Assembly (NCBI GenBank): GCA_050485485.1
Contig: JBJHBM010000001.1
Coordinates: forward strand, 41,037-105,036
DNA length: 64,000 nucleotides
Source of the DNA: Alphaproteobacteria bacterium
GTDB taxonomy: Bacteria > Pseudomonadota > Alphaproteobacteria > SMXQ01
Reading direction: 5' to 3'
Shown here: piece by piece, positions 28,960 to 46,870 of the stretch
Position numbering within the stretch: position 1 is the first letter of the stretch
How the letters are laid out: every line of letters starts with the position of its first letter
Position numbers and translations under genes: made by a program
Notes under the pieces: model-generated
Told to the model about the DNA's origin: nothing
Databases searched by the model: none
The model's input: the letters and a program-made list of their open reading frames with translations, nothing else

Positions 28960-29000
28960 CCGGCTCCCGGCAAGCGCGCTTGCCGCGCGCCATCCCTCCG

Positions 29001-29045
29001 CAACCCTCTCCCCCCGACCGGGGGGAGAGGGCAGGGTGAGGGGGG
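29001..29045. repeat. Intergenic palindromic repeat, family 2 (CCCTCTCCC...GGGAGAGGG.AGGGTGAGGGG)
   Basis: Closely similar copy at 58457..58500. Confidence 0.7.
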
Positions 29046-29070
29046 TGGCTGGGCCCGGCGGCCGCATGCG

Positions 29071-31041
29071 CTAGCGCCCTCCGGGACCGAAGCGGAAGCT
29101 CAGGCCGGCGAAGGCGGCGAAGCCGGGCGTGCCGTAGCCGTAGAGCTCCTGGTAATGGGTATCGAGCGCGTTCTCGACGCGGGCGAACAGCTCGACCCCC
29201 TCGCGCAGGGACCAGAACATTCCCGCGTTGACCAGCGTGTAGCCGCCGAGACGCACGGGGAACCTGTTGAAGGAATCGTCGAACGCGGTGTCCCGCTGGC
29301 TGCCGTTGTAGCGTACCCCGAGGTTGAACCGCGCCGGCCGCTCGTCCAGGTCGAAGCGGTAGGTGGCGTTGGCGCTCGCGATGTGCTTGGCACGGCGTAT
29401 CAGCGTCACGCTGTTGGCGTCCTGGGCATTCAGGAAGGTGTAGTGGGCGTCGAGCCTGAGGTACGGGGTGGGCTCCGTCGCGAGGCTGACCTCGACGCCC
29501 TGGGTCCGGGTGGTTCCGGGGAGGTTCCTGGCGGTGGAACCGTTGCCGTCGATCAGGTTGCGGATGCGGTTCTGGAAATAGGTGACGTCGGCGATCAGCC
29601 TACCGCCGAAGAAGCCCTTTTCTACGCCCAGATCCCAGCCGATGCCCTCCTCGGGCACGAGATTGGGATTGCCGGTGAAGGTCGGGGTCGAGCCGAACAG
29701 CTCGAACAGGGTCGGGTTCTTGACGCCGCGCCCGACGCTGCCGTGAAGCCGCACGTCCCAGGAATCGATCAGGTAGGCGGCGGTGCCACGCCAGGTCCAC
29801 TGGTCCTTGAACAGGGAATCGTTGTCGTCGTAGCGCAGGCCTCCCGAGAGGAACCAACGCTCGTCCAGGGCAAGGCGGTATTCGCCGGCATAGCTGTAGT
29901 TCTCGACCGACTTGGTGTTGTCGCCGTTGGTCGAGCTCCAGGTGAACTGCTTTTCGTATTCGCGTTCGGCGAGAACGGTCAGGGTATGCTTCGCGCCCCA
30001 TTCCGGGGAGTCGAGAAACACGCTGGTCTGGTAGTCGTACTTGGTCTTGGCGCCGTCCGAGACGAAGGTGAGGGTCCCGGGCGGGCTGCGGAAGTCGGTT
30101 TCGTCGCTGATGTGGCTCGCGCGCACCCGGTGCTCCCACGCGCCGCCGAACAGGCGCCAGTTGGCGCCGACCAGCCCGTACTGCTGGACCGTTTCCGAAT
30201 ATTCGTTGCTGTCGCGCAGCAGGTTTCCGGAGATGGTGGAATCCGCCTGGCGCTGGCTGTCGATCCGCATGCCGACCGCTTCGATGTCGAGCCCGGGAGC
30301 GAGCTGGAGCCCGGCCTTCAGGCGGCCGGTGTAGTTGCGGTAGTGATCGGTCTCGGGATTGTTGTTGCGCGCCTCCGCGATGGAGATGCCGGAGGTCCAG
30401 TGATGGCCGAGCCCGCCCGAGACGTAAAACCTCTCTCCGCCGTAGCCGAGATGGGTGACGCCGTTGACCGTGTTGAAGCTGCCGCCTTCGCCCCGCGCCG
30501 CGCCCGACCACCCGGGTCCCGGCCGCTTGGTCACGATGTTGATGACGCCGCCGATGGCATCCGAGCCGTAGAGTGCGCTCTGCGGGCCGCGCAGCACCTC
30601 GATGCGCGCGATCTCCAGGTTGAGCAGGTTCTGGAAGTCGAATTCGGAGCTCGACGAGGGGTTGTTGACCTCGATCCCGTCGATCAGCACCAGGGTCTGG
30701 TTGCCTTCCGCGCCGCGGATGCGGACCTGGGAGAGGCTGCCCATGCCGCCCGAACGCCCGAAGGCGACGCCGGGCACGTCGCGCAGCACGTCGCCGACGA
30801 AACGGACCTGCCGGTCCTCGAGGTCCTGTTCGGTGAGCACCGTGACGGCGGAGCCGACCTCGCGCGACGGTACCGGCACGTGCGAGGCGGAGACCACCAC
30901 TTCGGGCGCGACGGTGACGTCCTGGGCGTCCTGGGCGTCCTGGGCGCGGGCGGCGCCCGGGCTTCCGAGCAGGGCCGGAGCCGAAAGGATGAGGGTGAGG
31001 GCGCCCGCCGCGCGGCGGGCCGGATGCTTGTCTGCGGTCAT
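29071..31041 (-). CDS. btuB: TonB-dependent receptor, vitamin B12 type
   Basis: EVVVSA TonB box, IRGA...VLIDG, IEVLRGPQSALYGSDAIGGVINI and ENALD..Y; downstream of a cobalamin riboswitch. Confidence 0.87.
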   Translation of the reverse strand: MTADKHPARRAAGALTLILSAPALLGSPGAARAQDAQDAQDVTVAPEVVVSASHVPVPSREVGSAVTVLTEQDLEDRQVRFVGDVLRDVPGVAFGRSGGMGSLSQVRIRGAEGNQTLVLIDGIEVNNPSSSSEFDFQNLLNLEIARIEVLRGPQSALYGSDAIGGVINIVTKRPGPGWSGAARGEGGSFNTVNGVTHLGYGGERFYVSGGLGHHWTSGISIAEARNNNPETDHYRNYTGRLKAGLQLAPGLDIEAVGMRIDSQRQADSTISGNLLRDSNEYSETVQQYGLVGANWRLFGGAWEHRVRASHISDETDFRSPPGTLTFVSDGAKTKYDYQTSVFLDSPEWGAKHTLTVLAEREYEKQFTWSSTNGDNTKSVENYSYAGEYRLALDERWFLSGGLRYDDNDSLFKDQWTWRGTAAYLIDSWDVRLHGSVGRGVKNPTLFELFGSTPTFTGNPNLVPEEGIGWDLGVEKGFFGGRLIADVTYFQNRIRNLIDGNGSTARNLPGTTRTQGVEVSLATEPTPYLRLDAHYTFLNAQDANSVTLIRRAKHIASANATYRFDLDERPARFNLGVRYNGSQRDTAFDDSFNRFPVRLGGYTLVNAGMFWSLREGVELFARVENALDTHYQELYGYGTPGFAAFAGLSFRFGPGGR

Positions 31042-31294
31042 TGATCGTCCCTTTTCCGGATGGATGTCCATGATCGGCAAGGGACGCCGGTGCCTTTCCA
31101 GCCCGCGCGCCCCGTGCCTGGGAACGTGACGCGCAAGGGACCGCCCGCCCCATCAGGGCGGCGGAACAACGATAGAACCGGTGCGGCGAGATACTCTCCC
31201 ACGACGGACCCCCAGCAGCGACACGAAGCCGCGTCACCGCAAACGGCGATCCGTCCCACCGGCACACCCCGGCCCGTGGAAGAGTGACGCTAGC

Positions 31295-31475
31295 GGCGGC
31301 AGGTCTCCTGGCTCGCGGGTCGTCGCTCGTGCCCGGCCTTCCCGGTTTCCCAGTGGCACACGGGGGGCATTCGCTCGCCGCTCACAGTTGCGGGGGCAGC
31401 CAGGGCCGGGTCCGACGATGAAGGGGGACCGTCCCTGTTCCCTTTTGATTCCCTCTCGGGAACCGTCGCTGCGAG
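31295..31475 (-). promoter_or_regulatory. Cobalamin riboswitch
   Basis: Minus strand reads GGTTCCC...AAAAGGGAACAGGG...CTGCCCCCGCAACTGTGAGCGG...GCCACTGGGAAACCGGGAAGG...AGCCAGGAGACCTGCC (B12 box). Confidence 0.93.
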
Positions 31476-31524
31476 GAAGTTAGCGCGGGTGCGCGGCGTC
31501 CGCAACCGTCGTGGTGCGGGCCCG

Positions 31525-32772
31525 CTATTCGGCCGGGGCCGGGGCGCTGCGCTTCCTGGCCATGGGTCCGCGCGGCAGCAGCACCGCCACCACGCACAGG
31601 GCGATGAAGAACATGGTGCTGTAGAACACGTATTCGGGCGGGAAGCGGTCCAGGATGAAGCCCAGCAGCACCGGGGCGAGGGCGCCACCCACGTTCTGGC
31701 CGGTGAAGATGAAGCCGAACACGCGGCCCGAAGCGCCTTCCGGCGTCACCTCGCGCACCATCATGTCGCGCGCCGGGCGCACCACGCCGTGGCAGAAGCC
31801 GGCGAAGCCGAAGAACACCACCAGCAGCGCGTAGTGGAGCGAGAAGAACGTGATGAGCACCACCGCGACGATCGAGAGCGCGTAGATGAGCGCCGCGAAA
31901 TGGTCCTGGCGCTTGACGTGGTCGGCGATCACGCCGCCCGCGAGCACGGCGAAGGAGCTCACGAGCATGTAGGCGCCGACGGCCGCGCCCGCGTCCACCG
32001 CGCTGGTGCCGTGAAGGGCGTTGAGCGCCGGGATCGAGAAGCTGTGGAGCCCGTTGCCGGCGAGCGAGGACATGGCGAAGAAGGTGAACAGCACCAGCAC
32101 CGGGCGCGACAGCAGGAGGTCGCGGTTCTCGGCGAAGCTGCCCCCCTTCTTGCCGTCTTCCCGGGGCTTGCGCTTGACCGGCGCGATGCGGTCGTCCTTG
32201 AGGCTCGACCACTGGGTGACGAGGGTGAGCAGGATCGCGAAGCCGAAGGCGGCGACGATCAGCAGCGCCACGCGCCAGTCCCACAGGGTGGACAGGAAGG
32301 TGATCACGACCGGGGCGGCGGCGAAGCCGAGATGGCCCGAGAAGGTGTGGACCGAGAACGCCCGTGCCATGCGCTTCTCGCTGACCGAGCCGTTGAGGAT
32401 GGCGTAGTCGGCGGGGTGAAACACCGCGTCGCCGATGCCGCCGATGACGACCAGCAGCACCAGCACCCAGTAGTTGGGGGCGAAGGCCATCGCCGCGAAA
32501 GCGGTGACCATCAGGAACATGCCGCCGCTCAGCATGAGCTTGGCGCCGTACCTGTCCACCAGGAAGCCGGCGGGGACCTGCGCCATGCCGGTGGCGATGT
32601 AGCGCAGGCTCAGCATCGCGCCCAGCGCCGTAAAGCTGATCCCCAGGTCCTGGTTCAGGAAGATGAACAGCGCCGGCAGCGCCAGCATGTAGAAGTGGCT
32701 GCAGAAATGGCCGGTGCACACCAGGCTCAGAATCTTGATGTCGTTGCCGACGCCGGCGCTCGCTGCGGACAT
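31525..32772 (-). CDS. MFS transporter, paralog 1 (Fsr-like)
   Basis: GHFCSHFY, AGFLVDRYG, VFHPADY and RPARDMM; about 12 TM helices. Confidence 0.88.
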   Translation of the reverse strand: MSAASAGVGNDIKILSLVCTGHFCSHFYMLALPALFIFLNQDLGISFTALGAMLSLRYIATGMAQVPAGFLVDRYGAKLMLSGGMFLMVTAFAAMAFAPNYWVLVLLVVIGGIGDAVFHPADYAILNGSVSEKRMARAFSVHTFSGHLGFAAAPVVITFLSTLWDWRVALLIVAAFGFAILLTLVTQWSSLKDDRIAPVKRKPREDGKKGGSFAENRDLLLSRPVLVLFTFFAMSSLAGNGLHSFSIPALNALHGTSAVDAGAAVGAYMLVSSFAVLAGGVIADHVKRQDHFAALIYALSIVAVVLITFFSLHYALLVVFFGFAGFCHGVVRPARDMMVREVTPEGASGRVFGFIFTGQNVGGALAPVLLGFILDRFPPEYVFYSTMFFIALCVVAVLLPRGPMARKRSAPAPAE

Positions 32773-32788: not shown

Positions 32789-34093
32789 CTACCGGGCGGC
32801 CTGCCGGGCCTGCTTGCGCGCGAGCGCCGCCGAGCCCATCACAGCAAACATGCAGATCACCATGAAGATGGCGGAGGTGTAGAACACCCAGGCGGTGACG
32901 CCTACGTCGATCATGAATCCGAACATGATCGGCGCGATGGTGCCGCCGATGGCCTGGCCGGAGAAGACGAAGCCGAACGCCTTGCCGATGGCGCCCTTGG
33001 GACTGGCGGCGCGGATCATCATGTCGCGGGCCGGGCGGATCATGCCCTGAACCCAGCCGGCGAGCGTGAACACGCCCACCAGCACCACGGTGTGGAGCGG
33101 GAACGCGCCCACGACCAGGGCGATGACGGCGGTGAGCAGCAGGGCGCCACCCGCGATCAGCTCGTGGCGGCTGTTCTTGTCGGCGACCACGCCGCCCGCC
33201 AGCACGCCGAAGGCGGACGCGAACAGGAAGCCGGTCAGCGCCGCGCCGGCGATGGCGACCGGAGTGTCGTGCAGCGTCACCAGGCCCGCCACCGACCAGT
33301 TGCGGAACGCGCCCGAGCCGAGCTGCTGCAGGGCGAAGAACAGGAACAGGAGCAGCATCGGCGGCGACAGGATGACCTGCTTGACCGCGACCCAGGTGCT
33401 CATCTCCGCGCCCGCCGCGGCCACCGCCTGGTCGGTCTTCTCCACCTCGGCGGCCTTGGGGGCGGCCTTGGGGGCGGCCTTGCTCTCGTCCTTGGCGGGC
33501 TTGGCAACGCCTTCCTCGATGCGGCTCCACTGGGTCGCCATGCCGATCAGGATGGCGACGCCGACGATGCAGGAGGCCAGCAGCCCGACCCGCCAGTTCC
33601 ACAGCGTTGCCGCGGTGAGGATCACCACCGGCGCCAGCGCGTCGCCGAGGTTGCCGGAGAAGGTGTGCGCGCTGAACGAGCGGCCGATGCGCGATTCGTG
33701 GATGCTGCCGTTGAGGATCGAGTAGTCGGCCGGGTGGAACACCGAGTTGCCGACGCCCGCGATCAGGATGAAGAAGGCGATCAGCCAGAACGAGGTCGTG
33801 ATCGAGACCAGGAAGAAGCACGCGATCAGGATGGCGAAGCCGGTCAGCAGCAGCATCTTGGCGCCGTACTTGTCCACCAGGATGCCGGCGGGAAGCTGCA
33901 TCATGCCCGACGCCATGTTCTTGGCGGCGAGCAGCAGGCCGAGCAGCGTGTAGCTGACTCCGAGGTCGTTGTGCAGGAACGGGAACAGGGGCGGCAGCAC
34001 GGTCGAGAAGTAGTGGCTCATGAAATGGCCGCCCGAGACCAGCCCGATGATCGTGGCGTCCCGCTTGACCGTGCCTGCCGTGGCGTCCGTCAT
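32789..34093 (-). CDS. MFS transporter, paralog 2
   Basis: GHFMSHYF, VFHPADY and RPARDMM; start taken at MTDATAG after GAGGA. Confidence 0.88.
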   Translation of the reverse strand: MTDATAGTVKRDATIIGLVSGGHFMSHYFSTVLPPLFPFLHNDLGVSYTLLGLLLAAKNMASGMMQLPAGILVDKYGAKMLLLTGFAILIACFFLVSITTSFWLIAFFILIAGVGNSVFHPADYSILNGSIHESRIGRSFSAHTFSGNLGDALAPVVILTAATLWNWRVGLLASCIVGVAILIGMATQWSRIEEGVAKPAKDESKAAPKAAPKAAEVEKTDQAVAAAGAEMSTWVAVKQVILSPPMLLLFLFFALQQLGSGAFRNWSVAGLVTLHDTPVAIAGAALTGFLFASAFGVLAGGVVADKNSRHELIAGGALLLTAVIALVVGAFPLHTVVLVGVFTLAGWVQGMIRPARDMMIRAASPKGAIGKAFGFVFSGQAIGGTIAPIMFGFMIDVGVTAWVFYTSAIFMVICMFAVMGSAALARKQARQAAR

Positions 34094-34208
34094 GTTCGTT
34101 TCCTCGTGTTGCCGCGCGTCCTCTGCGGGACGATTCGCGTTACTTCCTGGACCGCTCCGCGCGGGGTCCGGACCGGGACCCGGATAAGGACGTGCGCGGG
34201 CGCGGCGG

Positions 34209-35501
34209 TCATCCGGCGGGCTGTGCCTCCAGCCGCCGCTGGCGCCGCTCATAGTACGCCGAGCCCAGGACCGCGAGCGCGCACATGACCATGAAGAACG
34301 CCGAAGAGATAAAGACCCACATCGGGGCCCCGATGTCGATCAGGAACCCGAAGAACACCGGGGCGATGCCGCCGCCGATGGCCTCGCCCGAGAACACCAG
34401 GCCGACCACCTTGCCCATCGAGCCCTTGGGGCTGGCCGCGCGGATCATCATGTCGCGGGCCGGGCGGATGATGCCCTGGAACAGGCCGGCGACGGTGAAC
34501 ACGAACACCAGCAGGGCGTAGTGCAGGTCCACGTTGGCGACCAGCAGGCAGATGCCGGCGGTCAGGAACAGCGAGCCCGCGGCCAGCATGTCGTGGCGCT
34601 TGTTCCTGTCGGCGACCACGCCGCCCACCAGAACGCCGAAGGCGGAGGCGAACAGGAAGCCGGTGAGGGCGCCGCCTGCGGCGGCCACCGCCGTGCCGTG
34701 GAGCGTGACGAGGCCCGCGACCGAGAAGTTCTTGAAGGCGCCGCCGGCGAGCGAGGTCATGGCGAAGAACAGGAACAGGAACATGATCGCCGGGGAGCGC
34801 AGGATCTGCTGGATCATCTCCCAGGTGGTGGCCTCGCGCTCGGGCGCGGCCGCCGCGCCCACGGACATGGCCGCGACCTCGCTCTTCTTGCGCTTCTTCA
34901 TCTGCTTGGCGATGCCTTCGTGCATCTTGTTCCAGCGGACGAGAAGCCCCGCGATGATGACGAGGCCGACGATGACCGAGACCAGCACGCCGACGCGCCA
35001 GTTCCAGAAGGCGGTCATGGTCAGCAGCGCGACCGGCGCGACCGCCGAGCCGAGGTGGCCGGCGAAGGTGTGGACCGAGAACGACCGGCCGAGCCGGCTC
35101 TCGTGCACCGTGCCGTTGATGATCGAGTAATCGGCGGGATGGAACACCGCGTTGCCGATGCCCGCGATCAGGAACATCAGGGCGATCACCCAGAACGAGG
35201 TGCTGAGCGAGATCACGAAGTAGGCGCCGACGATGATGCCGAGGCCCATCATCAGGAGGATGCGCGCGCCGTACTTGTCCACCATGATGCCGATGGGAAG
35301 CTGGATCGCGCCGGCCGAGATGTGCTTGAGGGTAAGCAGGAGACCGAGCATCGTGTAACTGACGCCGAGGTCGTCGTGGAGGAACGGAAACAGGGGCGGC
35401 AGCATCATGGTGTAGTAGTGGCTCATGAAATGGCCACCCGACACCAAGCCTACGACTTCCACATCCTTGCGCAGCCTGCCCGCGGTTGCGACGTCCGCCA
35501 T
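34209..35501 (-). CDS. MFS transporter, paralog 3
   Basis: GHFMSHYY, VFHPADY and RPARDMM. Confidence 0.88.
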   Translation of the reverse strand: MADVATAGRLRKDVEVVGLVSGGHFMSHYYTMMLPPLFPFLHDDLGVSYTMLGLLLTLKHISAGAIQLPIGIMVDKYGARILLMMGLGIIVGAYFVISLSTSFWVIALMFLIAGIGNAVFHPADYSIINGTVHESRLGRSFSVHTFAGHLGSAVAPVALLTMTAFWNWRVGVLVSVIVGLVIIAGLLVRWNKMHEGIAKQMKKRKKSEVAAMSVGAAAAPEREATTWEMIQQILRSPAIMFLFLFFAMTSLAGGAFKNFSVAGLVTLHGTAVAAAGGALTGFLFASAFGVLVGGVVADRNKRHDMLAAGSLFLTAGICLLVANVDLHYALLVFVFTVAGLFQGIIRPARDMMIRAASPKGSMGKVVGLVFSGEAIGGGIAPVFFGFLIDIGAPMWVFISSAFFMVMCALAVLGSAYYERRQRRLEAQPAG

Positions 35502-35661: not shown

Positions 35662-36651
35662 TCAGATGCGGAATTTGCCGTGCACCACCGGAGGGAACAG
35701 GTCCTCGGGCTTGAGGCGCTTCTGGGCGATGCCCTGCTCGTGGGTCCATTTGAGGAAGGCCTCGAGGGTGGTGCGGTTGTCCTCGATGCCGTAGGGGAAG
35801 TAGTCGTCGCCGAGGAGCTTCATGCGCTGCTCGGCCTCGTAGGTGAGCCACGGCAGCGGCATGCGCGAGGCGGTGATCTCCAGCAGCCGCTCGATCGAGC
35901 GCTGGCGGGCCTTCTCGAAGGCGGTCATCAGGTTGGCGGCAACCCAGGAGTTCCCCTCGAGGATCGACTTCTTGATCGCGATCACGTGCATGATCGGGAA
36001 CACCTTGGTCTTCTTGTAGTAGTCGGCCTCGACCTCGCGGTAGTCCGGGAACAGCCGGCGCACGTCGGGGTGGCCGTCGAGGAAGCTGCGCGGCGCGTGG
36101 GCCGAGAAAGCAGCGTCGAGCTCGCCCGAGGCCAGCATCTCCGAAAGCGACTTGTCGGGCATCGGCGTGACCTTGACGCCCTTGGGCAGCTTCAGCTTGA
36201 CCTTCTCGATGCGTCCCGGCTGGTCGACGCCCGCCTGGCGCCAGTCGATCTCGGAGAGCTTGATGCCGACGTGGTCGGTGAGCCAGCCGCGGGTATAGAC
36301 CGAGGCCGTCTGCGCCCATTCCGGCGTGCCGACGCGCTTGCCCTTGAGGTCCTTCGCGGTCTTGATGCCGGCGTTCTTGTTGACGTAGATGTTCGAGAGC
36401 CGGAACACGCGCGAGGGGAACACCGGCAGGCCGATGATGTCGGGACGGTCGCCCGAAACCTGGGCCACGAACTTGGCGAACGACATCTCCGACAGGTCGA
36501 AGTCGCGGTGCAGCGCCATGCGGTAGAAGATCTCCTCGACCTCGTAGGTCATGAGGTTGAGGTCGATGCCCTCGATCGGCGCGTATTCGGTGCCGACGTC
36601 GCGGATGTGGTCGTACTCGGAACAGGCGAAGTTCAGCTTCAGCTTGGACAT
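35662..36651 (-). CDS. 4,5-dihydroxyphthalate decarboxylase-like protein (Pht5/OphC family)
   Basis: ACSEYD, EEIFYRM, FDLSEMS, PVFPSRVFR, FPIMH and PYGIEDNR motifs; no signal peptide. Confidence 0.8.
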   Translation of the reverse strand: MSKLKLNFACSEYDHIRDVGTEYAPIEGIDLNLMTYEVEEIFYRMALHRDFDLSEMSFAKFVAQVSGDRPDIIGLPVFPSRVFRLSNIYVNKNAGIKTAKDLKGKRVGTPEWAQTASVYTRGWLTDHVGIKLSEIDWRQAGVDQPGRIEKVKLKLPKGVKVTPMPDKSLSEMLASGELDAAFSAHAPRSFLDGHPDVRRLFPDYREVEADYYKKTKVFPIMHVIAIKKSILEGNSWVAANLMTAFEKARQRSIERLLEITASRMPLPWLTYEAEQRMKLLGDDYFPYGIEDNRTTLEAFLKWTHEQGIAQKRLKPEDLFPPVVHGKFRI

Positions 36652-36682: not shown

Positions 36683-38218
36683 TCAGGCCACCGCCGCGCC
36701 GGCGGCGGTCGGGGTGGAGAACAGGAGGGACTTGATGACCAGCGGCACGACGTTGGTGGGCTTGATCATCTCGCCGATGTCCACGAAGTCGAACTCCTTG
36801 AGCGCGACGCCGTCGACCGAGATGATGTCGGCCTTCACGCCGCACTCGCGGGTGAGGATGTTGCCGATGGTCTTGCCGATGTCGCCGTCGAGCATCAGCA
36901 CCAGGGCCTGGCCGCCCTTGATGGTGTTGGGGAGGCCGGCGCAGATGCCGTCCGCCAGGGCCTTGAGGCGCGCGTGCAGCGGGTCGCCGTGCCATTCGAA
37001 GGCGAGCGCCACGGGCTTCTCGCCCTCGTCGTAGTCGAAGCGCTTGAGGGCGGCCCGGATCTCCTCGTCGATCTTGACTGCATCGATCTCGCCCTTGAGC
37101 GAGACGTTGGGGCGCAGGACCGGGATGTTGCGGACCGGCAGGGCGCCTTCGTTGGAGATGTGGATGGTGTTGCCCGACACCTGGACCGAGAACTGTGAGG
37201 CGCCGACCACGGTCGCGCGGATGCCCTGGCCGGGGTCCATCACCTTGTAGGGAATGCGGTCGTCGCCAAGCGCCTCGGCCATGGCCTCGGCGAGATAGCG
37301 GCCGACGTCGTTGTGGTCCTTGGTCTCGCGCTTGTAGATGTACTCCGAGACGCCGCCCGAGAAGGTGATGAAGTCGGGCACCGGCTTCTTGGGCAGGGGC
37401 TCCGTCACCATCAGGTCCTTGGTGATACCCTCGGGGTCCTGCTGCATGACCGCCGGGATCAGGGCGGCGATCATGGTGCGGGCGATCTTGCGGATTTCGT
37501 CTTCGGAGAGCTTCTTGCCCATCTCGAGCTCGACGCCGGCCTTGCGGGCATGGACGAAGGCGGGGCCCTCGATGCGGTTGATGCGGCCGTCGTCATCGAA
37601 GGCGATCAGGCGCCCGCCGACCTCGATCGCGGCGCTCGCGAGCAGGCGCCCGCCGTGGCACAGGCCGAGCTTGGTGGTGCCGCCGCCGACGTCGATGTTG
37701 AGCACGTTCTTGTGCCCCTGGCGCGACAGCGCGATGGCGCCCGAGCCGTGGGCGGCCATGGCGCATTCGAGGTGGTGGCCGGCGGAGGCGCACACGAACT
37801 TGCCCGATTCGGCCGCGAACAGGTGGGTGATGGCCTCGGCGTTCTTGCGTTTGAGCGCCTCGCCGGTGAGGATCACCGCGCCCGAATCGACCTCGTCGCG
37901 CTTGATGCCGGCCTCCTTGTAGCCCGCCTCGATGAACTTCTGCAGGAAGCCCACGTCGATGGTGTTGTCCGGCAGGTAGGGGGTGAGCAGGATCGGCGAG
38001 CGCCACAGCACCTCGCGGTTGACCACGACGAAGCGCGAGCTGAGCGCGGTGGTGAGGCGCTGCATGTGGACCTTGGCGAACATCAGGTGAGAGGTCGAGG
38101 AGCCGACGTCCACGCCGATGGTGACGAGCTCGACGTTGTCCGCCGCCCAGATGGTTTCGGCGATCGCCTTCTCGTCCTCAGGGGTCATATGTCCGTGATC
38201 GAAGCCGAGTTCATGCAT
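36683..38218 (-). CDS. eutA: EutA-like ASKHA ATPase (ethanolamine ammonia-lyase reactivase homolog)
   Basis: GVDVGSSTSH, SPILLTPY, GAVILTGEA, NIDVGGGTTK, IRATVVGASQFSVQVSGNTI and VPLVIKSLLF; no eutB/eutC in the window. Confidence 0.8.
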   Translation of the reverse strand: MHELGFDHGHMTPEDEKAIAETIWAADNVELVTIGVDVGSSTSHLMFAKVHMQRLTTALSSRFVVVNREVLWRSPILLTPYLPDNTIDVGFLQKFIEAGYKEAGIKRDEVDSGAVILTGEALKRKNAEAITHLFAAESGKFVCASAGHHLECAMAAHGSGAIALSRQGHKNVLNIDVGGGTTKLGLCHGGRLLASAAIEVGGRLIAFDDDGRINRIEGPAFVHARKAGVELEMGKKLSEDEIRKIARTMIAALIPAVMQQDPEGITKDLMVTEPLPKKPVPDFITFSGGVSEYIYKRETKDHNDVGRYLAEAMAEALGDDRIPYKVMDPGQGIRATVVGASQFSVQVSGNTIHISNEGALPVRNIPVLRPNVSLKGEIDAVKIDEEIRAALKRFDYDEGEKPVALAFEWHGDPLHARLKALADGICAGLPNTIKGGQALVLMLDGDIGKTIGNILTRECGVKADIISVDGVALKEFDFVDIGEMIKPTNVVPLVIKSLLFSTPTAAGAAVA

Positions 38219-38277: not shown

Positions 38278-39405
38278 TCAGTCCGTATAGGGGCTTTCGT
38301 CGATATAGGCGCCCATGTCGGAGCGCACGTTGGTCTCCTTGAGCGCACCCAGCCACTTGCGGTGGATGCGCGGGTCCTGGTCGGCGTACTCGATCTGGCG
38401 GCCGCCCTTCTTGATATCGGTGTCGGCCTTGCCGGCCGCACCCTCGCGCCGGATGGTGGAGAACGGGTAGCGTCGGCTGCCCATGCCGACCGCGAGGTAG
38501 CGCGCGGGCTCGGGGGCGGTGTTGAAGTGCTGGTGGAACATCCACAGCGGCGGCGCGTACATGATGCCGTGGCGCCACGGCACCTCGACGAAATCCTGCT
38601 CGCCTTCGTACCACAGCAGGGTGTAGCCGGTGCCGGTCACCGCCCAGATGTGGATGCCGTCGCCGTGGCGGTGCCCCTTCTTGTAGCGCGCGGCCGGGAT
38701 CTCCGAGGTGTGTGCGTGCAGCGTGCCGTCCGCCAGGATGAAGGTGATGTTGGAGCCGCCGGCGCCGCGTTCGCTCCAGGTCACCAGCTCGAAGTTGGTG
38801 AGGTCGGGCACGAAGGTGGTTTCCCACATGTGGCGGCCGGGCTTGATCGGGGTGAAGTCGCCGTCGCCTTCGTAGTACTTCGGATCGCCCATGCGATCGC
38901 GGAAGCTGAAGTCGTTACCGAAGACGAACTCCTCGTTGTGGAACAGATTCATCACCAGCGGCGCGAAATGGGTGCAGGCGAGCCGCGCGCGCTCGGAGCC
39001 CGAGCCGTTGAGGATGCGGTAGCGCGCGTTCAGCGGCAGCGCGAACAGCGCGCGCGGCCCCCATTCGAACGTGTGCTTGCGCCCGTCCGGCAGCTCGATC
39101 ACGGTCGAGCCGTGGCCTTCCAGCACGTAGACGAAGCATTCGTACATGTGCCTGATCGCCTCGGTGCCGCGCCCGGTCGCGATATCGAGGAGATAGGCAG
39201 CACAGTTGTCGCCGCGCCCCCTGACGTGGAGGAACGCGCCGTCGCAGCCGAAGCGCGGCCACGGGCCGGTCTCGACCGCGAGCGCGTCTATGCCGAAGCC
39301 CTCGTGGACCGGCGGCCCCTCCGCCTTGACCCAATCGAGATAGGGGTCGAGCAGGAACCTCTTTTCGTGGTCCGTCTGCAGCAACTGCAGCTCTTCTTCA
39401 GCCAT
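38278..39405 (-). CDS. Uncharacterised bicupin, paralog 4 of 7
   Basis: DPYLDW, FEWGP, WETTFVPD, YKKGHRH, FHQHFN, QIEYADQDPRIH. Confidence 0.8.
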   Translation of the reverse strand: MAEEELQLLQTDHEKRFLLDPYLDWVKAEGPPVHEGFGIDALAVETGPWPRFGCDGAFLHVRGRGDNCAAYLLDIATGRGTEAIRHMYECFVYVLEGHGSTVIELPDGRKHTFEWGPRALFALPLNARYRILNGSGSERARLACTHFAPLVMNLFHNEEFVFGNDFSFRDRMGDPKYYEGDGDFTPIKPGRHMWETTFVPDLTNFELVTWSERGAGGSNITFILADGTLHAHTSEIPAARYKKGHRHGDGIHIWAVTGTGYTLLWYEGEQDFVEVPWRHGIMYAPPLWMFHQHFNTAPEPARYLAVGMGSRRYPFSTIRREGAAGKADTDIKKGGRQIEYADQDPRIHRKWLGALKETNVRSDMGAYIDESPYTD

Positions 39406-39435: not shown

Positions 39436-40557
39436 TCAGGCCGTCTTTTGTGTCCGAGACGCGTATTTCGATTCGTCGATGACGTCGCCCATCAGCGACT
39501 TGACCTGGTTCTTGGCGAGTTCCTCCAGGAAGATCGCGTGGATGCGCGGGTCCTGATCCTCGTACTCGACCTGGTTGCCGCCGTCCTTGATCGAGGTGTC
39601 CACGCCTTGGTCCCAGATCTGGCGCTTGACGGCGAACAGCGGATAGCGGGTCGAGCCCATCTGGACGGCGAGGTAGCGCGACGGCACGCTGCCCGAGTTG
39701 AAGTGCTGGTGGAACATCTGGTCGGGCGGCGCATACATGACGCCGTGGTGCCAGTCGATGCGCTTGAAGTCCGCGTCGTCCTCGTACCAGAACAGCGAAT
39801 ACCCCTGGCCGGTGATGCAATAGACGTTGGTGCCGGGCGTGTGCCGGTGGCCCTTCTTGTAGGTGCCGACCGGCATCTGGGAGGTGTGGCAGCCGATGGT
39901 GCCGTCGGCGAGGATCCAGCGCAGGTTGGACGAGCCGGTGCCGCGCGCATCCCACTGCTTGAGCTCGAAATTGGAGATGTCGGGAACGAAGTTCGTTTCC
40001 CACTGGTGACGTCCGGGCCGCACCGGCTTGAGCTCGCCTTCGCCCGAGAAGTAGCTGGTGTCGCCGAGGCGCTCCGTGAACGGGATCGGGTTGTCCCAGA
40101 TGAACCGCTCATTGCGGAACAGGTTCATGATGAAGCGGAGGTCGTTGTTGCAGGCGAGGCGCGCCGGCTCCGAGCCCGATCCGTTAAAGTGCTGGTAGGG
40201 AAGGTTGAGGGGAATCTCGAACAGGGAGTTGGGGCCCCATTCGAAGGTGTGGGTGCGGCCGTCCGGCAGTTCGATCTTGGTCGAGCCGTGGCCAGACAGC
40301 ACGTAGACCACTTCCTCGTAGACATGGCGCAGGCGGCTCGACTTGCCGCCGGGCGGAATCTCGAACAGGAGGGTGGAAAGATAGTCGTCGCCGCCCACCA
40401 GCTCGCAGATTGTGCCGCGCATCCCGAAGAAGTCCCACGGGGCGACCTCGGCCTGCAGCATGTCGATCCCGAAATCGCGCACCGTCGGGACCGGCTGGCG
40501 CGCGCACCAGTCGAGGTAGGTGTCCTGCAGATAGAAACTGCCCGTCGTTTCCGACAT
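39436..40557 (-). CDS. Uncharacterised bicupin, paralog 5 of 7
   Basis: DTYLDW, FEWGP, WETNFVPD, YKKGHRH, FHQHFN, QVEYEDQDPRIH. Confidence 0.8.
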   Translation of the reverse strand: MSETTGSFYLQDTYLDWCARQPVPTVRDFGIDMLQAEVAPWDFFGMRGTICELVGGDDYLSTLLFEIPPGGKSSRLRHVYEEVVYVLSGHGSTKIELPDGRTHTFEWGPNSLFEIPLNLPYQHFNGSGSEPARLACNNDLRFIMNLFRNERFIWDNPIPFTERLGDTSYFSGEGELKPVRPGRHQWETNFVPDISNFELKQWDARGTGSSNLRWILADGTIGCHTSQMPVGTYKKGHRHTPGTNVYCITGQGYSLFWYEDDADFKRIDWHHGVMYAPPDQMFHQHFNSGSVPSRYLAVQMGSTRYPLFAVKRQIWDQGVDTSIKDGGNQVEYEDQDPRIHAIFLEELAKNQVKSLMGDVIDESKYASRTQKTA

Positions 40558-40666: not shown

Positions 40667-41794
40667 TCAGGCGGTCTTCTTCGGGGCGAACTTGCTTTCG
40701 TCGAAGATGTCGCCCATCTGCGACTTGACGCCGTGCTTCGCGAGCTCGTTAAGGAAAATCTCGTGAATGCGCGGGTCCTGGTTTTCGTATTCGATCTGGT
40801 TGCCGCCGTCCTCGACGCTGGTATCCACGCCGCCGCCGAACAGCTTGCGCTTGCTGTCCACGAACGGATAGCGCATCGAGCCGAGCGCGACCGCGAGGTA
40901 GCGCGCGGGGTTGGGGCCGGTGTTGAAATGCTGGTGGAAGATTCCGTCGGTGGGCACGAACACGACGCCATGCTCCCAGTCGATGCGGCGGTAGTCCTGG
41001 TCCTTCTCGTACCAGAACAGGGTGTAGCCGCTGCCGTTGACGGCATAGACGTAGAAGTCGGCGCCGTGGCGGTGGCCCTTCTTGTAGGAGCCGACCGGCA
41101 TTTCCGACGAGTGCGCGTGCATGGTGCCGTCGGCCAGGATGAACTTCATGTTGCCCGAACCCTTGCCGCGCGCCTCCCAGGCCTTGAGCTCGAACGCCGA
41201 GATGTCGGGGACGAAGTTGGTCTCCCACATGTTGCGGCCCGGCTTGATCGGGATGAATTCGCCTTCGCCGGCGAAGTAATTGTGGCCGCCCTCGCGCTCG
41301 GGGAAGCTGAAGTCGTTGTCGAAGATGAACTTCTCGTTATGGAACAGGTTCATCATCAGCGGCAGGTAGTTGACCGACGACAGCCGCGCGCGCTCCGAGC
41401 CGGAGCCGTTGAAATGCTGGTAGCGGCAGTTGAGCGGCAGGGCGAACAGGCTCTTGGGGCCCCATTCGAAGGTATGCTTGTGGCCGTCCGAGGTCTCGAT
41501 CACGGTCGAGCCGTGGCCGTCCATGACGTAGATGGTCTCCTCGAACACGTGCTTCTGGGGCTTCGACTTCCCGCCCGGCGCGAGGTCGATCACGAACAGG
41601 GAGGTGAAGTCGCCGCGCCCGTCGAGGTGCACCAGCGCGCCATCGGTCTCGAACATGGCCCAGGGCTTGGTTTCCACGTCGAACAGGTTGATCCCGAGCC
41701 CCCCCGCGATCGGCACGTTCTGCGCTGCCGCCCAGTCCCCGTAGGGATCGAGCAGAAACTTCTTCTCCTTGATGGTCTGCATGATCTCGGCCAT
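40667..41794 (-). CDS. Uncharacterised bicupin, paralog 6 of 7
   Basis: DPYGDW, FEWGP, WETNFVPD, YKKGHRH, FHQHFN, QIEYENQDPRIH. Confidence 0.8.
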   Translation of the reverse strand: MAEIMQTIKEKKFLLDPYGDWAAAQNVPIAGGLGINLFDVETKPWAMFETDGALVHLDGRGDFTSLFVIDLAPGGKSKPQKHVFEETIYVMDGHGSTVIETSDGHKHTFEWGPKSLFALPLNCRYQHFNGSGSERARLSSVNYLPLMMNLFHNEKFIFDNDFSFPEREGGHNYFAGEGEFIPIKPGRNMWETNFVPDISAFELKAWEARGKGSGNMKFILADGTMHAHSSEMPVGSYKKGHRHGADFYVYAVNGSGYTLFWYEKDQDYRRIDWEHGVVFVPTDGIFHQHFNTGPNPARYLAVALGSMRYPFVDSKRKLFGGGVDTSVEDGGNQIEYENQDPRIHEIFLNELAKHGVKSQMGDIFDESKFAPKKTA

Positions 41795-41862
41795 GACCGC
41801 GGCTCTCCTCGACGAAAAAAGTCCTAAAATCGGGCCGCAGCATACCACAGGATCGCCAATAT

Positions 41863-41919: not shown

Positions 41920-42693
41920 TCAGGCGGCTTTCCGGGACTTCGCGGTGCCGGCCCCGTCGAGCTCCTTCTGGAGCACGTCGCCGGCGTCGCCGATACCGTT
42001 CAGATAGTTCTCCCAGATCGCCAAGTTCTGGTCCGCGACGTCGAGCAGGCGCTCTTCCATGCGCAATTCCTCGGCGTGCTTGGCGAGGTTCTTCCAGCCG
42101 AGGTCGGAATGGATCTCGTCCGCTTCCTCGTGGAGCTTGAAGAACCCGAGTTCGCCGTCCGAAAGGCCGAAGATTTCCTTCCAGCGGGCGCGCTCCAGGC
42201 CGAACCAGCCGCTCTCCTTGACGAGACCCGAGCCGTAGCCGCGGATGTTCGGGCGCTCCAGGATGACGTTGGCGAGCAGGCCTTCGAGCCAGTGGCAGTG
42301 CGACATCACGCCGGCCCAGGCGTTCCAGGACAGTTGGGTGGTCTTGAGCGGGCGCGCGGCGCGGATCTGCTCGCGCGACATGCCAATGGTGACGCCCAGG
42401 TTCTCCAGGATCTGCCAGTGGGGCAGGCCGCCGCCGAACTCGTCGTCGGCGATCAGCTCCTCGGAGGCAGCGCCGATGATGCTGAGGCGGGTGTCCCAGT
42501 CGGGGGTGAGGGTGGCGACCCGCAGCTTCAGCACCGAGTTGCGCTGGCGGGTGTTGAGCCGGTGCTGCATCACGAAGGTCTTGGCGCGGCCTTCGTTGTA
42601 GGGCTCGTTGAAGTAGCGGAGGTTGTCGCAGAACGCGTCAAGCTTCTCGTCGAGGGCCTTGATGAAGCCGGTGGCGTTGGGGTCGCGAGGCAT
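41920..42693 (-). CDS. Heme-oxygenase-like diiron protein (CADD/PqqC-like)
   Basis: EEL..DDEFGGGLPHW, LER and HEEADEIH (H-x3-D-x2-H). Confidence 0.72.
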   Translation of the reverse strand: MPRDPNATGFIKALDEKLDAFCDNLRYFNEPYNEGRAKTFVMQHRLNTRQRNSVLKLRVATLTPDWDTRLSIIGAASEELIADDEFGGGLPHWQILENLGVTIGMSREQIRAARPLKTTQLSWNAWAGVMSHCHWLEGLLANVILERPNIRGYGSGLVKESGWFGLERARWKEIFGLSDGELGFFKLHEEADEIHSDLGWKNLAKHAEELRMEERLLDVADQNLAIWENYLNGIGDAGDVLQKELDGAGTAKSRKAA

Positions 42694-42889
42694 GAACTGG
42701 TCTCCTGATGTCACAATTTTAGAAGCGTCTTCAGCGCGGTCCGCTTCGGGACTGGGCGGCCTAGGGACCGGAATGCCCGGTTTTCCGCCCGTCCGGCGAG
42801 TTTGTTGAAAACGCAAATATTAGATACCAAAGCCTCCCCCCTAATTGAAATACTATATGGCAATACTTCCTATATGAATTTTATATATC

Positions 42890-43666
42890 TCAGGCGCGCC
42901 GGGCGCGAGGCTTATGCCGGCCGCGCCGTGCCGTCCGCACAAGCGCGTCGCCCGCGTCGCCGATGCCGTTGAGATAGAGCTCCCAAATGCGCAGGTTCTG
43001 GTCGGCCACCTCCAGCAGGCGATCCTCCATGCGCAGCTCGCGCGCGAATTTGGCGAGATTCCGCCAACCGAGGTCGGAGTGCTTCTCGTCGGCCTCGTTG
43101 TGGATCTTGAAGAACTTGAGCGCCTCGTCGGGGAGATGCGGGAACAGCTTCCTCCAGCGCACCCGCTCGTAGCCGAGCCAGCCGTACTTGCGGATGTTGC
43201 CCGATCCGTAGCCCGGGATGTTGGTGCGCTCGGACACCACGTTGGCGAGCAGCCCCTCGAGCCAGTGGCAGTTGGCCATCACGCCCATCCACGCGTTCCA
43301 GGCGAGCTGGGTGGTGGGAAGCGGCTTCGCGGCACGGACATTCTTGCGCGACATGCCGATGGCGACGCCCAGGTTCTCCAGCATCAGCCAGTGGGGGAGG
43401 CCGCCTCCGAACTCGTCGTCGCGCACCAGCTCCTCGTAGCAGGCGCCGAGGATGCGAAGCCGCGTGCCCCAGTCCGGCGTGTTGGTCGCGACCTTGAGCT
43501 TCAGCACCGAGTTGCGCTGGCGGGTGTTGAGGCGGTGCTGATAGACGAACATCCGCGCGCGCCCCTCGTTGTAGGGCTCGTGGAACAGCCGGGTGCGCTC
43601 GCAGAAATCGTCGAGCACCTTGTCGAGCTCGCGGATGAAACCGGTCGCCTTGGGGTCGCGGGGCAT
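42890..43666 (-). CDS. Heme-oxygenase-like diiron protein; tandem paralog of 41920..42693
   Basis: Same MPRDP.ATGFI start; HRLNTRQRNSVLKL, DDEFGGGLPHW and HNEADEKH. Confidence 0.72.
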   Translation of the reverse strand: MPRDPKATGFIRELDKVLDDFCERTRLFHEPYNEGRARMFVYQHRLNTRQRNSVLKLKVATNTPDWGTRLRILGACYEELVRDDEFGGGLPHWLMLENLGVAIGMSRKNVRAAKPLPTTQLAWNAWMGVMANCHWLEGLLANVVSERTNIPGYGSGNIRKYGWLGYERVRWRKLFPHLPDEALKFFKIHNEADEKHSDLGWRNLAKFARELRMEDRLLEVADQNLRIWELYLNGIGDAGDALVRTARRGRHKPRARRA

Positions 43667-43714: not shown

Positions 43715-44743
43715 TTACGAGAGGTCCAGGATAATCTTCCCGAACTGCTCGGCGCGCGCGAGGCGGGCGAAGGCAGCGCGGTAGTCGGCGAGGGGGTGGA
43801 CGCTGTCGATCACCGGGCGGAGGCGGCCCTGGGCCACCACCTGCATGAGCTTCCGGCACTCCTCGAAATTCGCCGTGGTGGAGCCGTAAATTCGCAACTG
43901 GCGCACGAAAATCCGCTGCAGGTCGGCGGGCGGGTGGCCGCCGGTGGTGGCGCCCACCACCATGATGCGACCGCCCCACCCGGCGGCACGGAGCGACTGG
44001 TCCCAGGTGGCGGCACCGACGTTGTCGCACACCACCTCGGCGCCGCGCCCGCCGGTCAGCGCCCGCACCCGCTCCCAGATCGTCTCGCGGGCGTGGTTGA
44101 CGGTCTCGTCGGCGCCGAGCGCCCGGGCACGGGCGAGCTTCTCGTCGCTCGACGAGGTCACGATCACGCGCGCCCCGGCGAGCTTGGCGAGCTGCAGGGT
44201 CGCGAGCGCGACGCCGCCGCCGATGCCGACGATCAGCACGGTCTCCCCCGGCACCATCGGGTGCTTGCCGAACACCTGGCGCCAGGCGGTCAGGTGCCCG
44301 ACCGGCAGGGCGGCGGCCTCGTGCCAGGAGAGGCCGTCCGGCACGGCCACGAAGTTGTGGGCCTTCATGGAGAGGTACTCGGCGAAGCCGCCGTCGCGCT
44401 GCTCGCCGATGATGCGGATGTGCCGGCAGTAGGGCTGCTCCCCCGCGAGGCAGTAGTCGCAGCGCCCGCAGAACTCGCTTGGGAAGGCGATCACGCGCTG
44501 GCCCGGCGCCAGCCCCGAATCGGGGTCGGCCTCCACCACCTCGCCGGCGGCATCGACGCCGAGGATCATCGGCATCGGGTGGGTGATGCCCTTGCCGACG
44601 TCGCGGACGTAGAGATCGACGCGGTTGAGGGCGGCGGCGCGCACCCGGATCAGCGCGTTGCCGGGTGGGCGCGCCGGCACCGGCACGTCGTCCCTGAGCC
44701 TGAGCCCCTCGGGCCCGCGTTCCTCCAGCACCAGCGCCTTCAT
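43715..44743 (-). CDS. Zinc-binding medium-chain dehydrogenase/quinone oxidoreductase
   Basis: CGRCDYC...C structural Zn site, GIGGGVA and QFGKIIL; catalytic Cys position reads ALNRVD. Confidence 0.85.
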   Translation of the reverse strand: MKALVLEERGPEGLRLRDDVPVPARPPGNALIRVRAAALNRVDLYVRDVGKGITHPMPMILGVDAAGEVVEADPDSGLAPGQRVIAFPSEFCGRCDYCLAGEQPYCRHIRIIGEQRDGGFAEYLSMKAHNFVAVPDGLSWHEAAALPVGHLTAWRQVFGKHPMVPGETVLIVGIGGGVALATLQLAKLAGARVIVTSSSDEKLARARALGADETVNHARETIWERVRALTGGRGAEVVCDNVGAATWDQSLRAAGWGGRIMVVGATTGGHPPADLQRIFVRQLRIYGSTTANFEECRKLMQVVAQGRLRPVIDSVHPLADYRAAFARLARAEQFGKIILDLS

Positions 44744-44868
44744 GCGTCTTCGTTCCTTTTGCCTTGCGTCCCTGTCCTGCCGGCGCCCGAGCATAGTGCC
44801 TCGCCGGCCGAAGTCCACAGCGCGCCGTCCATGCGCCATCCATGCACCGCCCATGCGCCACGGGGGGC

Positions 44869-44897
44869 GTGACAAGGCCGGCCCGAATACCTATTAC
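44869..44897 (+). promoter_or_regulatory. Putative sigma70 promoter of pcaF
   Basis: GTGACA-17 bp-TATTAC about 50 bp upstream of the start. Confidence 0.4.
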
Positions 44898-46754: not shown

Positions 46755-46870
46755 CAAGGGTTCCGCGGGGGCTTCCGGGACGCATTGACGGGCGCGGCGG
46801 GGACCAATACCCTTGCCGAAAACGGGTGCGCGGAGCGCGTGCGGATAAAAGGGCAAGGGAAGGAAGGCGC

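Follow-up and report, generated by a model that had tools for sequence, protein, structure and literature searches.

A EutA-family ATPase encoded beside bicupin genes in an aromatic-catabolic region of an alphaproteobacterium

Introduction

EutA is the ATP-dependent reactivating factor of the adenosylcobalamin-dependent ethanolamine ammonia-lyase EutBC, from which it exchanges damaged cobalamin. Here, we describe a EutA-like protein encoded in a 64,000-nucleotide stretch of the genome of an alphaproteobacterium of the lineage SMXQ01 (assembly GCA_050485485.1, contig JBJHBM010000001.1, positions 41,037 to 105,036). The whole stretch is called the window below, and its positions are numbered from its first nucleotide. 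This protein belongs to the EutA family but is not a reactivase of ethanolamine ammonia-lyase. Its gene is located next to genes of bicupins, proteins with an N-terminal and a C-terminal cupin barrel, with which it is conserved as a pair across several bacterial phyla.

Results

Organization of the ATPase operon

The gene of the EutA-like protein, hereafter the ATPase, is located on the minus strand at positions 36683–38218. It begins with an ATG codon, has a GC content at third codon positions (GC3) of 0.95, and encodes an ASKHA ATPase of 511 residues that belongs to the EutA family PF06277. Three bicupin genes precede it on the same strand. Bicupin A has 393 residues (40667–41848), bicupin B has 373 residues (39436–40557), and bicupin C, with 375 residues (38278–39405), is positioned 59 bp upstream of the ATPase gene. 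The start codon of bicupin B is the ATG at 40557, which follows the sequence GGGAGGG, and the open frame extends to 41046.

The four genes belong to an operon of twelve minus-strand genes with gaps of -44 to 160 bp. The first gene encodes a zinc-type alcohol dehydrogenase or quinone oxidoreductase (43715–44875). It is followed by two haem-oxygenase-like proteins of the family PF14518, which are 69–72% identical to each other. The first of them (42890–43666) has weak matches in the PDB to a TenA/THI-4 protein and to 4-aminobenzoate synthase, and the second (41920–42816) is CADD/TenA-like. The gene 31 bp downstream of that of the ATPase (35662–36651) encodes a 4,5-dihydroxyphthalate-decarboxylase-like protein with a binding-protein fold. 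Its residues 1–326 match residues 21–346 of a solved 4,5-dihydroxyphthalate decarboxylase (PDB: 9jp7) with an E-value of 2.3e-67, and four more paralogues of it are present in the genome. The operon is closed by three transporters of the major facilitator superfamily (MFS; 34209–35501, 32789–34252, and 31525–32772).

Sequence and fold of the ATPase

The PF06277 model matches residues 30–500 of the ATPase along model positions 2–474/475, with an E-value of 2.6e-119 and 399.7 bits at a cut-off of 27. The ATPase shares 33% identity with EutA of Escherichia coli K-12 (b2451) over residues 30–502. The NCBIfam EutA equivalogs NF007991–NF007994 gave 340.3, 264.2, 245.5, and 209.6 bits, and their cut-offs are 598, 769, 952, and 799, respectively. 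Because none of the four cut-offs was reached, the ATPase belongs to the broad EutA family and is not an ordinary EutA. The sequence contains the phosphate loops GVDVGSSTSH, around Asp37 and Gly39, and NIDVGGGTTK, which includes Asp176–Lys183, as well as the adenosine loop FSGGVSE at residues 286–292. Residues D37, G39, D176, G178–T181, and S287–G289 are invariant across 36 relatives, and they remain so when EutA from E. coli is added to the alignment. This agrees with a preliminary description of the window, in which the gene had been read as a full-length EutA with two ASKHA phosphate loops and a histidine cluster at the N-terminus.

The predicted structure of the ATPase, with a mean predicted local distance difference test (pLDDT) score of 86.6, can be divided into an ASKHA core formed approximately by residues 29–345 and an extra C-terminal alpha/beta domain formed approximately by residues 350–500. 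The proteins matched by the fold are ASKHA proteins, including Ppx/GppA (Z-score 16.5, root-mean-square deviation (rmsd) 4.3, 260 residues aligned), DdrA (Z-score 13.6, rmsd 4.2, 245 residues aligned), and rhamnulose and glycerol kinases (Z-scores 13–14). A sequence search of the PDB with the ATPase found no EutA structure. A search for fusions among longer proteins returned four matches, none of which has a cupin; two contain an ATP-binding cassette (ABC) permease domain, and one contains methyltransferase domains.

Bicupin copies, conserved residues, and fold

Searches of the genome with tblastn identified a single EutA-like gene and ten bicupin genes. Nine of the bicupin genes are located within approximately 70 kb: three beside the ATPase gene, three at positions 15496–18922, one at 62635–63831, and two just upstream of the window. 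The second block of three (15496–16734, 16634–17779, and 17807–18922, minus strand) encodes proteins that are 50–59% identical to bicupins A–C and has no ATPase gene of its own; after it comes a third, more divergent haem-oxygenase-like gene (18939–19772, minus strand). The seventh bicupin of the window (62635–63831, minus strand) is 61% identical to bicupin A and adjoins a gene of the UbiD family. The nine copies are mutually 48–61% identical, and six of them belong to separate gene blocks 18–40 kb away from the gene of the ATPase. The tenth bicupin, which is encoded on the plus strand of contig C27 (9463–10743, locus L053), is approximately 30% identical to bicupins A–C. It is of the type that pairs in related genomes with a paralogue that is 46% identical to the ATPase, and no EutA-like gene is located beside it.

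The conserved columns of the bicupin alignment include the invariant residues H245, H247, H291, and H293 of the C-terminal barrel, together with Y241, K243, and R302. Of the usual ligand positions of the N-terminal barrel, only H86 and E89 are kept. All nine close copies retain G97, G99, F113, E114, and N126, as well as the histidines of the C-terminal barrel.

The model of bicupin C has a pLDDT of 92 and a predicted template modelling score (pTM) of 0.90. The top folds found by VIA-align were those of gentisate 1,2-dioxygenase (PDB: 3bu7; Z-score 20.9, rmsd 4.1, 270 residues aligned), salicylate 1,2-dioxygenase (PDB: 2phd; Z-score 20.7, rmsd 3.4, 257 residues aligned), and gentisate dioxygenase from E. 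coli (PDB: 2d40; Z-score 20.1, rmsd 3.1, 240 residues aligned). Seed globulins, which are storage proteins, and oxalate decarboxylase scored 2–3 Z units below the dioxygenases. VIA-align discriminated better than Foldseek, which matched only generic bicupins in the PDB, with a TM-score of approximately 0.46. The matches in the ESM Atlas were limited to clusters named 'cupin domain-containing protein'. Pfam gave only weak Cupin_2 matches, and no B12-binding Pfam domain was matched. Of the NCBIfam dioxygenase models TIGR02272 and NF049978, only NF049978 matched the bicupins, with 21–23 bits against a cut-off of 650. An hhalign comparison of the bicupin family with the gentisate-dioxygenase homologue encoded at positions 79–1134 of the window gave a probability of 54% over 79 columns, and paired the N-terminal barrel of the former with the C-terminal barrel of the latter. 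The most likely reading of the model and the conserved residues is that the bicupin is a metal-dependent, probably oxygen-using enzyme.

Conservation of the ATPase–bicupin pair

Of the 14 orthologous loci found in the bacterial family, 13 have between one and five bicupin genes adjoining the gene of the ATPase. The exception is L027, where the ATPase gene is flanked by transposase genes and a bicupin gene is 5 kb away. The same family contains paralogues that are 37–46% identical to the ATPase, and in 14 of their 17 loci there is an adjacent bicupin with 25–42% identity to those of the window; one of the 14, L046, was counted by weak partial bicupin matches only. The more distant set comprised the best 80 of 573 confirmed relatives (one genome per species), with identities of 40–74%, from Alpha-, Beta-, and Gammaproteobacteria, Chloroflexota including SAR202, Actinomycetota, Eremiobacterota, Binatia, and other groups. 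A bicupin is encoded in 63 of these 80 loci, at most 400 bp from the ATPase gene in 55 of them; none of the 80 encodes EutB or EutC. Among the 17 distant loci that lack a bicupin, at least five have the ATPase gene at the end of a contig. Cultured bacteria that carry the pair include Ensifer sp. IC3342, Phyllobacterium chamaecytisi KW56, Streptomyces lanatus JCM 4588, and Rugosimonospora africana NBRC 104875.

The eutA gene of E. coli is located in the eut operon together with eutBC; in strain K-12, a cryptic prophage lies between it and eutB. Among 400 other genomes sampled evenly from the phylum, all four further full-length PF06277 matches, three of them canonical EutAs and one distant, are encoded directly beside eutB. 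The PF06277 model matched 318 genomes of this sample, mostly over approximately 45–110 residues, presumably in other ASKHA proteins, and five of the matches were full-length.

Twenty-three of the 24 other genomes from the bacterial family contain an EutA-like gene, with one to five matches each, and the bicupin profile matched the same 23. The profile had no match in 16 other genomes of the class or in the 400 of the phylum sample. The sole match of the ATPase query in the 16 class genomes spans 52 residues, with an E-value of 1.4e-4 (G027). Because related genomes are not independent, we regard this co-occurrence as consistency and attach no statistical test to it.

Several loci contain more than one copy of the pair. 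The locus L081 from a metagenome-assembled genome of Sulfuritalea sp. encodes three EutA-like proteins of different subclades and two bicupins within 10 kb (1738–10252), and there are two ATPase genes in each of L130, L106, L124, and L129. The ATPase and bicupin genes have been duplicated and have diverged as a unit.

Predicted complex of the ATPase with bicupin C

The ATPase is predicted to bind the bicupin. The complex with bicupin C was predicted with a median interaction prediction score from aligned errors (ipSAE) of 0.69 (0.65, 0.69, and 0.70 in individual runs), and the best of three controls reached 0.00. Of 157 solved complexes, 116 attained the mark applied to ipSAE, as did 2 of 215 mismatched pairs, counts that hold only roughly for the present pair because custom alignments of the ATPase and the bicupin were used. 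At least 70% of the contacts are common to the runs, and the partner has a pLDDT of at least 86. Sequence searches of the PDB with either chain found no related solved complex, and it therefore seems unlikely that the score merely reproduces a structure on which the model was trained.

The predicted interface of the ATPase is formed entirely by the C-terminal domain. It includes the segments SGNT (349–351), GDPLHARLK (411–419), GDIGKTIGNILTRE (445–458), and KPTN (486–489). The predicted contacts of the bicupin are in or beside the N-terminal barrel and include residues 77–79, HGSTV (98–102), KHTFEWG (110–116), and RILNGSGSE (130–138). Segment 411–419 of the ATPase is not conserved in EutA from E. 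coli. In a comparison of 78 adjacent pairs, the interface motifs of both partners change together by clade: the motifs GSAT[FY]xRLD and GDIGGL accompany RG[ST]TE, FEWQ, and NA[ST]x- in all ten pairs in which they occur. The matching of interface types also holds for two different pairs encoded in one locus, as observed in L130 and L081. A specific interface would be expected to show such joint change.

Phylogeny of EutA-family proteins and search for a B12-dependent client

A tree of EutA-family proteins was calculated by FastTree from 102 rows, after rows with internal stops or matches shorter than 400 residues had been omitted. Five EutAs linked to eutB are on one side of a branch with a Shimodaira–Hasegawa-like support of 98%, and the window ATPase is among the 97 proteins on the opposite side. 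A bicupin is encoded within 3 kb for 72 of these 97.

Pfam scans of 50 open reading frames (ORFs) of the window matched no EutB, EutC, microcompartment shell protein, or B12-binding enzyme, as the preliminary description had stated for ethanolamine ammonia-lyase, microcompartment, and B12-enzyme genes in the 64 kb. The genome assembly comprises 2.69 Mb in 110 contigs and is 95.1% complete; a search of all of it gave no match for EutB, EutC, bacterial microcompartment shell proteins, or methylmalonyl-CoA mutase. The large subunit of diol dehydratase also had no match in the genome, which is a weak blank, since the search control matched nowhere. The genome contains one strong B12-binding domain in a frame of 1405 residues, which was taken as MetH-like from its size. 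EutB is absent from all 24 other genomes of the bacterial family, and the single EutB-bearing genome of the class sample has no EutA-like match. The genome search and the tree had both been proposed in the preliminary description. They place the window protein apart from the eutB-linked EutAs, and they found no EutBC elsewhere in the genome for it to reactivate.

A cobalamin riboswitch (102.5 bits; 31280–31482, minus strand) is positioned 42 bp past the last MFS transporter gene. It heads a B12 uptake operon on the same strand, which encodes a BtuB-like TonB-dependent receptor (29071–31080), a BtuF-like binding protein (28066–29067), an FecCD permease (within 27071–28993), and a BtuD-like ABC ATPase (26247–27107). 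The riboswitch and the uptake genes adjoin the cluster in all four loci of the same genus. None of the ten loci from other genera of the family and none of the 80 distant loci has B12 uptake genes close to that of the ATPase. A B12 link as a family-wide feature was ruled out, because the proximity of btuB and btuF to the ATPase gene is confined to the genus of the window; it is read as a local coincidence.

N-terminal histidine motif of the ATPase

The ATPase begins with the sequence MHELGFDHGH. Of 119 homologues with at least 59% identity, 83 have the motif MH[DE]xx[FY]xHxH at residue 1, and the histidine cluster pointed out in the preliminary description is thus a conserved start and not a product of chance. 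Another 17 of the 119 read MDVH or VH at this place, which suggests that a GTG start was called two codons early. The class of paralogues with 40% identity to the ATPase starts with MHDDPFEHGH. Long extensions rich in histidine and aspartate, unlike the short MHE-type start of the window ATPase, are present at both termini of the copy from locus L041 (G001), and at the N-terminus of that from L046 (G016).

Genes of NicO nickel transporters flank the ATPase gene in two (L108 and L121) of the 13 annotated loci without a bicupin, and the genome of the window contains one NicO gene, on another contig. The histidine motif and the NicO genes are hints at metal handling; the metal could equally be iron. 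An Fbp-type ABC importer adjoins the ATPase gene in approximately 8 of the 80 distant loci. It was considered as a pointer to metal uptake, but it may instead import a substrate, as those loci also contain oxygenase and decarboxylase genes.

Aromatic-catabolic context

The window as a whole forms a large region of aromatic catabolism. In addition to the operon of the ATPase, it encodes a gentisate 1,2-dioxygenase homologue (79–1134; 197 bits to PDB 2d40), the beta and alpha subunits of protocatechuate 3,4-dioxygenase (pcaH/G, 2597–3981), a pcaB-like cycloisomerase (4025–5371), and a gentisate/5-aminosalicylate-dioxygenase-like bicupin of 453 residues (19708–21069, minus strand), the 211 bits of which are below the cut-offs. 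The UbiD-family decarboxylase encoded directly downstream of the seventh bicupin (region 60975–63831, minus strand) is VdcC-like, with 173 bits, below the cut-off. The gene of BoxB, a subunit of benzoyl-CoA 2,3-epoxidase (55299–56726, plus strand; 855 bits), and its surroundings point to the aerobic benzoyl-CoA pathway. A PnbB-type 4-hydroxylaminobenzoate lyase (51877–52362, plus strand; 158 bits) and the aspartate 1-decarboxylase PanD (56809–57192, plus strand; 163 bits) are encoded among the CoA-pathway genes. Furthermore, the window contains pcaF, a PrpF isomerase, CoA-transferases, hydratases, and TctA/TctC transporters.

A gene of the enoyl-CoA hydratase family precedes boxB (region 53605–56726, plus strand) and may be boxC. 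Four ORFs encoding 365–494 residues, with coding-like GC3, have no Pfam or NCBIfam match (12878–14362, plus strand; 20948–22198, plus strand; 46580–47818, minus strand; 48666–49763, plus strand), and some of them may be artefacts of the high GC content.

The 80 distant loci yielded 838 ORFs, which were clustered in an unbiased way to survey the neighbours of the pair in other genomes. The commonest, after the pair itself, are dihydroxyphthalate-decarboxylase-like proteins (19 loci by clustering and 25 by tblastn) and class II aldolase-like proteins (13), followed by TctA and TctC (10 each), LigXa-type Rieske oxygenases (9), IclR regulators (9), UbiD (6), GFO-type dehydrogenases (6), and Fer2-FNR reductases (6). 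In loci such as L086 and L074, the bicupin appears, from the gene content, to be the sole candidate for a ring-cleaving enzyme in a phthalate-type gene set.

Discussion

Proposed function of the ATPase

The coupling of the ATPase to the bicupins is well supported by the comparative evidence and by the controlled complex prediction. We consider it fairly probable that the EutA-like protein is an ATP-driven activase, metallochaperone, or reactivase for putative 3-His bicupin enzymes, and not a reactivase of a cobalamin enzyme; the mechanism, from the way in which the metal is handled to the use of ATP and the reaction of the bicupins, is inferred from these data. The C-terminal domain of the ATPase would dock on the N-terminal barrel of the bicupin, which is largely depleted of ligands. 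The flexible N-terminus, with the motif M-H-[E/D]-x-x-F-x-H-x-H, may hold a metal ion, either nickel or iron. The binding and hydrolysis of ATP in the ASKHA core would then drive the loading, exchange, or repair of the 3-His centre in the C-terminal barrel of the bicupin, in parallel to the ATP-driven exchange of damaged cobalamin in EutBC by EutA. A single ATPase would serve many paralogous bicupins, which are most likely ring-cleaving or related oxygen-dependent enzymes that act on hydroxylated aromatic carboxylates or polycarboxylates and are encoded in catabolic islands. More speculatively, a large EutA-type branch may consist of metal-insertion or repair factors with a HypA-like MH[E/D] site, possibly for nickel, each serving an expanded family of 3-His bicupins that open or transform aromatic polycarboxylates; this wider proposal is possible, and we put it forward tentatively.

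Alternatively, the ATPase and the bicupin may together make up a single ATP-consuming enzyme, each as a catalytic component, a reading that has the same pairing and the same predicted complex in its favour. An aromatic substrate would be activated by the ASKHA protein, through phosphorylation or otherwise, as in ASKHA proteins of the hydantoinase/oxoprolinase type and in carboxylase ASKHA proteins, and the bicupin would perform the next step, which could be a decarboxylation, isomerization, or ring opening. The catalytic loops of the ATPase are intact, and its nearest solved folds are those of ASKHA kinases and phosphatases. However, the genome contains one ATPase gene and ten bicupin genes, six of the nine close bicupins being encoded in other blocks away from the ATPase gene, and in related genomes there are 5–33 bicupin matches and 1–5 ATPase matches per genome, numbers that are not exact copy numbers. 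One ATPase for many bicupins fits a helper of many clients better than a fixed subunit, without proving it. No fusion of the two was found, as the four longer proteins contain no cupin, EutA, the nearest characterized relative, is a cofactor-exchange factor and not a kinase, and the conserved terminal histidine motif has no obvious role in a kinase. Taken together, these observations make a two-component enzyme rather unlikely.

It is improbable that the ATPase works instead with the decarboxylase-like protein, UbiD, or the haem-oxygenase-like proteins, or as a lone small-molecule kinase, the bicupin being a mere pathway neighbour. The decarboxylase-like gene closely follows that of the ATPase in the window and is present in 13 of the 14 orthologous and 25 of the 80 distant loci, and UbiD adjoins the ATPase gene in L108. 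Nevertheless, the decarboxylase-like gene occurs in only one of the 17 paralogue loci, haem-oxygenase-like genes in one of the 80 distant loci, and the UbiD cluster in six of them. No other neighbour is nearly as constant as the bicupin, whose occurrence across genomes follows that of the ATPase. The decarboxylase-like protein was ruled out as the main partner by these frequencies (25/80 and 1/17, as against 63/80 and 14/17 for the bicupin). The preliminary description had named the neighbouring cupins or the decarboxylase as possible clients; adjacency, the tree, and the complex prediction favour the cupins, and the decarboxylase is left without comparable backing by its frequencies. For the small-molecule kinase that it also named, the data speak neither for nor against. 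The least probable explanation, to which we give hardly any weight, is that the ATPase is still a cobalamin reactivase for an unrecognized B12 enzyme, possibly the bicupin itself, and that the adjacent B12 uptake operon reflects this need: it has in its favour the PF06277 membership and the riboswitch and btu operon, 42 bp beyond the cluster and kept in the four loci of the genus, but neither the other genera nor the distant loci have the uptake genes close to that of the ATPase, the genome has none of the adenosylcobalamin enzyme families searched, the bicupin lacks a B12-binding Pfam match and has a histidine cluster typical of metal cupins, and the ATPase is outside the eutB-linked clade.

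Several observations weigh against an activase or metallochaperone of the bicupins. Adjacency and joint change of motifs are expected for any two co-inherited operon genes, and most rows of the alignments are kin from one bacterial family. No bicupin is encoded nearby in 17 of the 80 distant and 3 of the 17 paralogue loci, and some of the loci without a bicupin have UbiD, LigB, or TauD neighbours instead. Shared components are known in true multi-component enzymes, for example shared oxygenase reductases, and the ratio of one ATPase to ten bicupins is consequently compatible with a catalytic role. Five of the 29 interface residues of the bicupin are among the 44 conserved columns, where approximately 3.4 are expected, so that the predicted interface is not enriched in conserved residues. 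Residues 1–11 of the ATPase are disordered in the model and outside the predicted interface, the class of paralogues with 46% identity has no histidine-rich N-terminus, and NicO is near the ATPase gene in two loci only. The tree was calculated only by FastTree, a quick method, and contains just five eutB-linked rows and one long branch (L139). Because the 80 distant loci were the best matches to the window protein, the tree cannot show where the two clades meet.

Implications for annotation and aromatic carbon turnover

Proteins of the PF06277 type are numerous: 7993 of 8000 scored candidates matched the family, and the source names shown were all of the kind 'ethanolamine ammonia-lyase reactivating factor'. 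Automatic annotation labels thousands of proteins in this way, and for the bicupin-linked branch the label is almost certainly wrong. If the ATPase loads or repairs the metal centre of the bicupins, the principle of a reactivase would be put to a new use, outside B12 chemistry. We know of no other accessory ATPase for a cupin enzyme, and this one would be the first. The wider, tentative proposal of a branch of metal-insertion or repair factors would define a new class of metallochaperones, together with a new major family of enzymes that turn over aromatic carbon in uncultured bacteria from soils and marine habitats. Since the bicupins have expanded in lineages rich in aromatic-acid islands, they probably catalyze a significant step in the breakdown of aromatic carboxylates, such as phthalate-like acids and acids derived from lignin or humic matter. 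A limited full-text literature search found no paper on the EutA-like/bicupin pair. The window adds to the picture a genome in which one ATPase gene faces ten bicupins, and an ATPase with a conserved MH[ED]xxFxHxH start that resembles the nickel motif of HypA. The existence of cultured carriers opens the question to direct testing.

Comparison with known systems

EutA from E. coli is homologous to the window ATPase along its full length, and the two proteins have in common the ASKHA loops and the extra C-terminal domain. They differ in the 29-residue N-terminal extension with the histidine motif, which is present in the window ATPase, and in the partner gene, which is that of a bicupin. The factors DdrAB, PduGH, and GdrAB, which reactivate diol and glycerol dehydratase, are likewise ATPases of the ASKHA type, and they release a damaged cofactor from the enzyme with which they work. 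Unlike the window ATPase, they are two-subunit factors with cobalamin-enzyme clients, and the fold of DdrA is no nearer to that of the ATPase than the folds of many other ASKHA proteins in the same list of matches.

The bicupins resemble gentisate and salicylate 1,2-dioxygenases in their fold and in their location in gene clusters for aromatic acids, and their histidine-only cluster is a candidate metal site. Gentisate dioxygenases are 3-His Fe(II) bicupins with the catalytic site in the N-terminal barrel, whereas the histidine cluster of the bicupins described here is in the C-terminal barrel. To our knowledge, no member of the gentisate/salicylate dioxygenase class requires an ATPase.

HypA, HypB, UreE, and SlyD are nickel metallochaperones of hydrogenase and urease maturation. 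The very N-terminus of the ATPase has the sequence M-H-E/D in common with HypA, where the N-terminal MHE is reported to be a Ni(II) site that binds the metal through the terminal amine and His2, the latter being essential (PMC7055735). The ATPase is not homologous to HypA: its fold is that of an ASKHA protein, and it has neither the zinc CXXC domain nor an invariant cysteine in 36 sequences. In HypA and HypB, the hydrolysis of a nucleotide is coupled to the delivery of a metal, as proposed for the ATPase. The difference is that the window protein contains the ASKHA ATPase in the same chain as the histidine motif, in place of a separate NTPase partner, and that its client would be a cupin.

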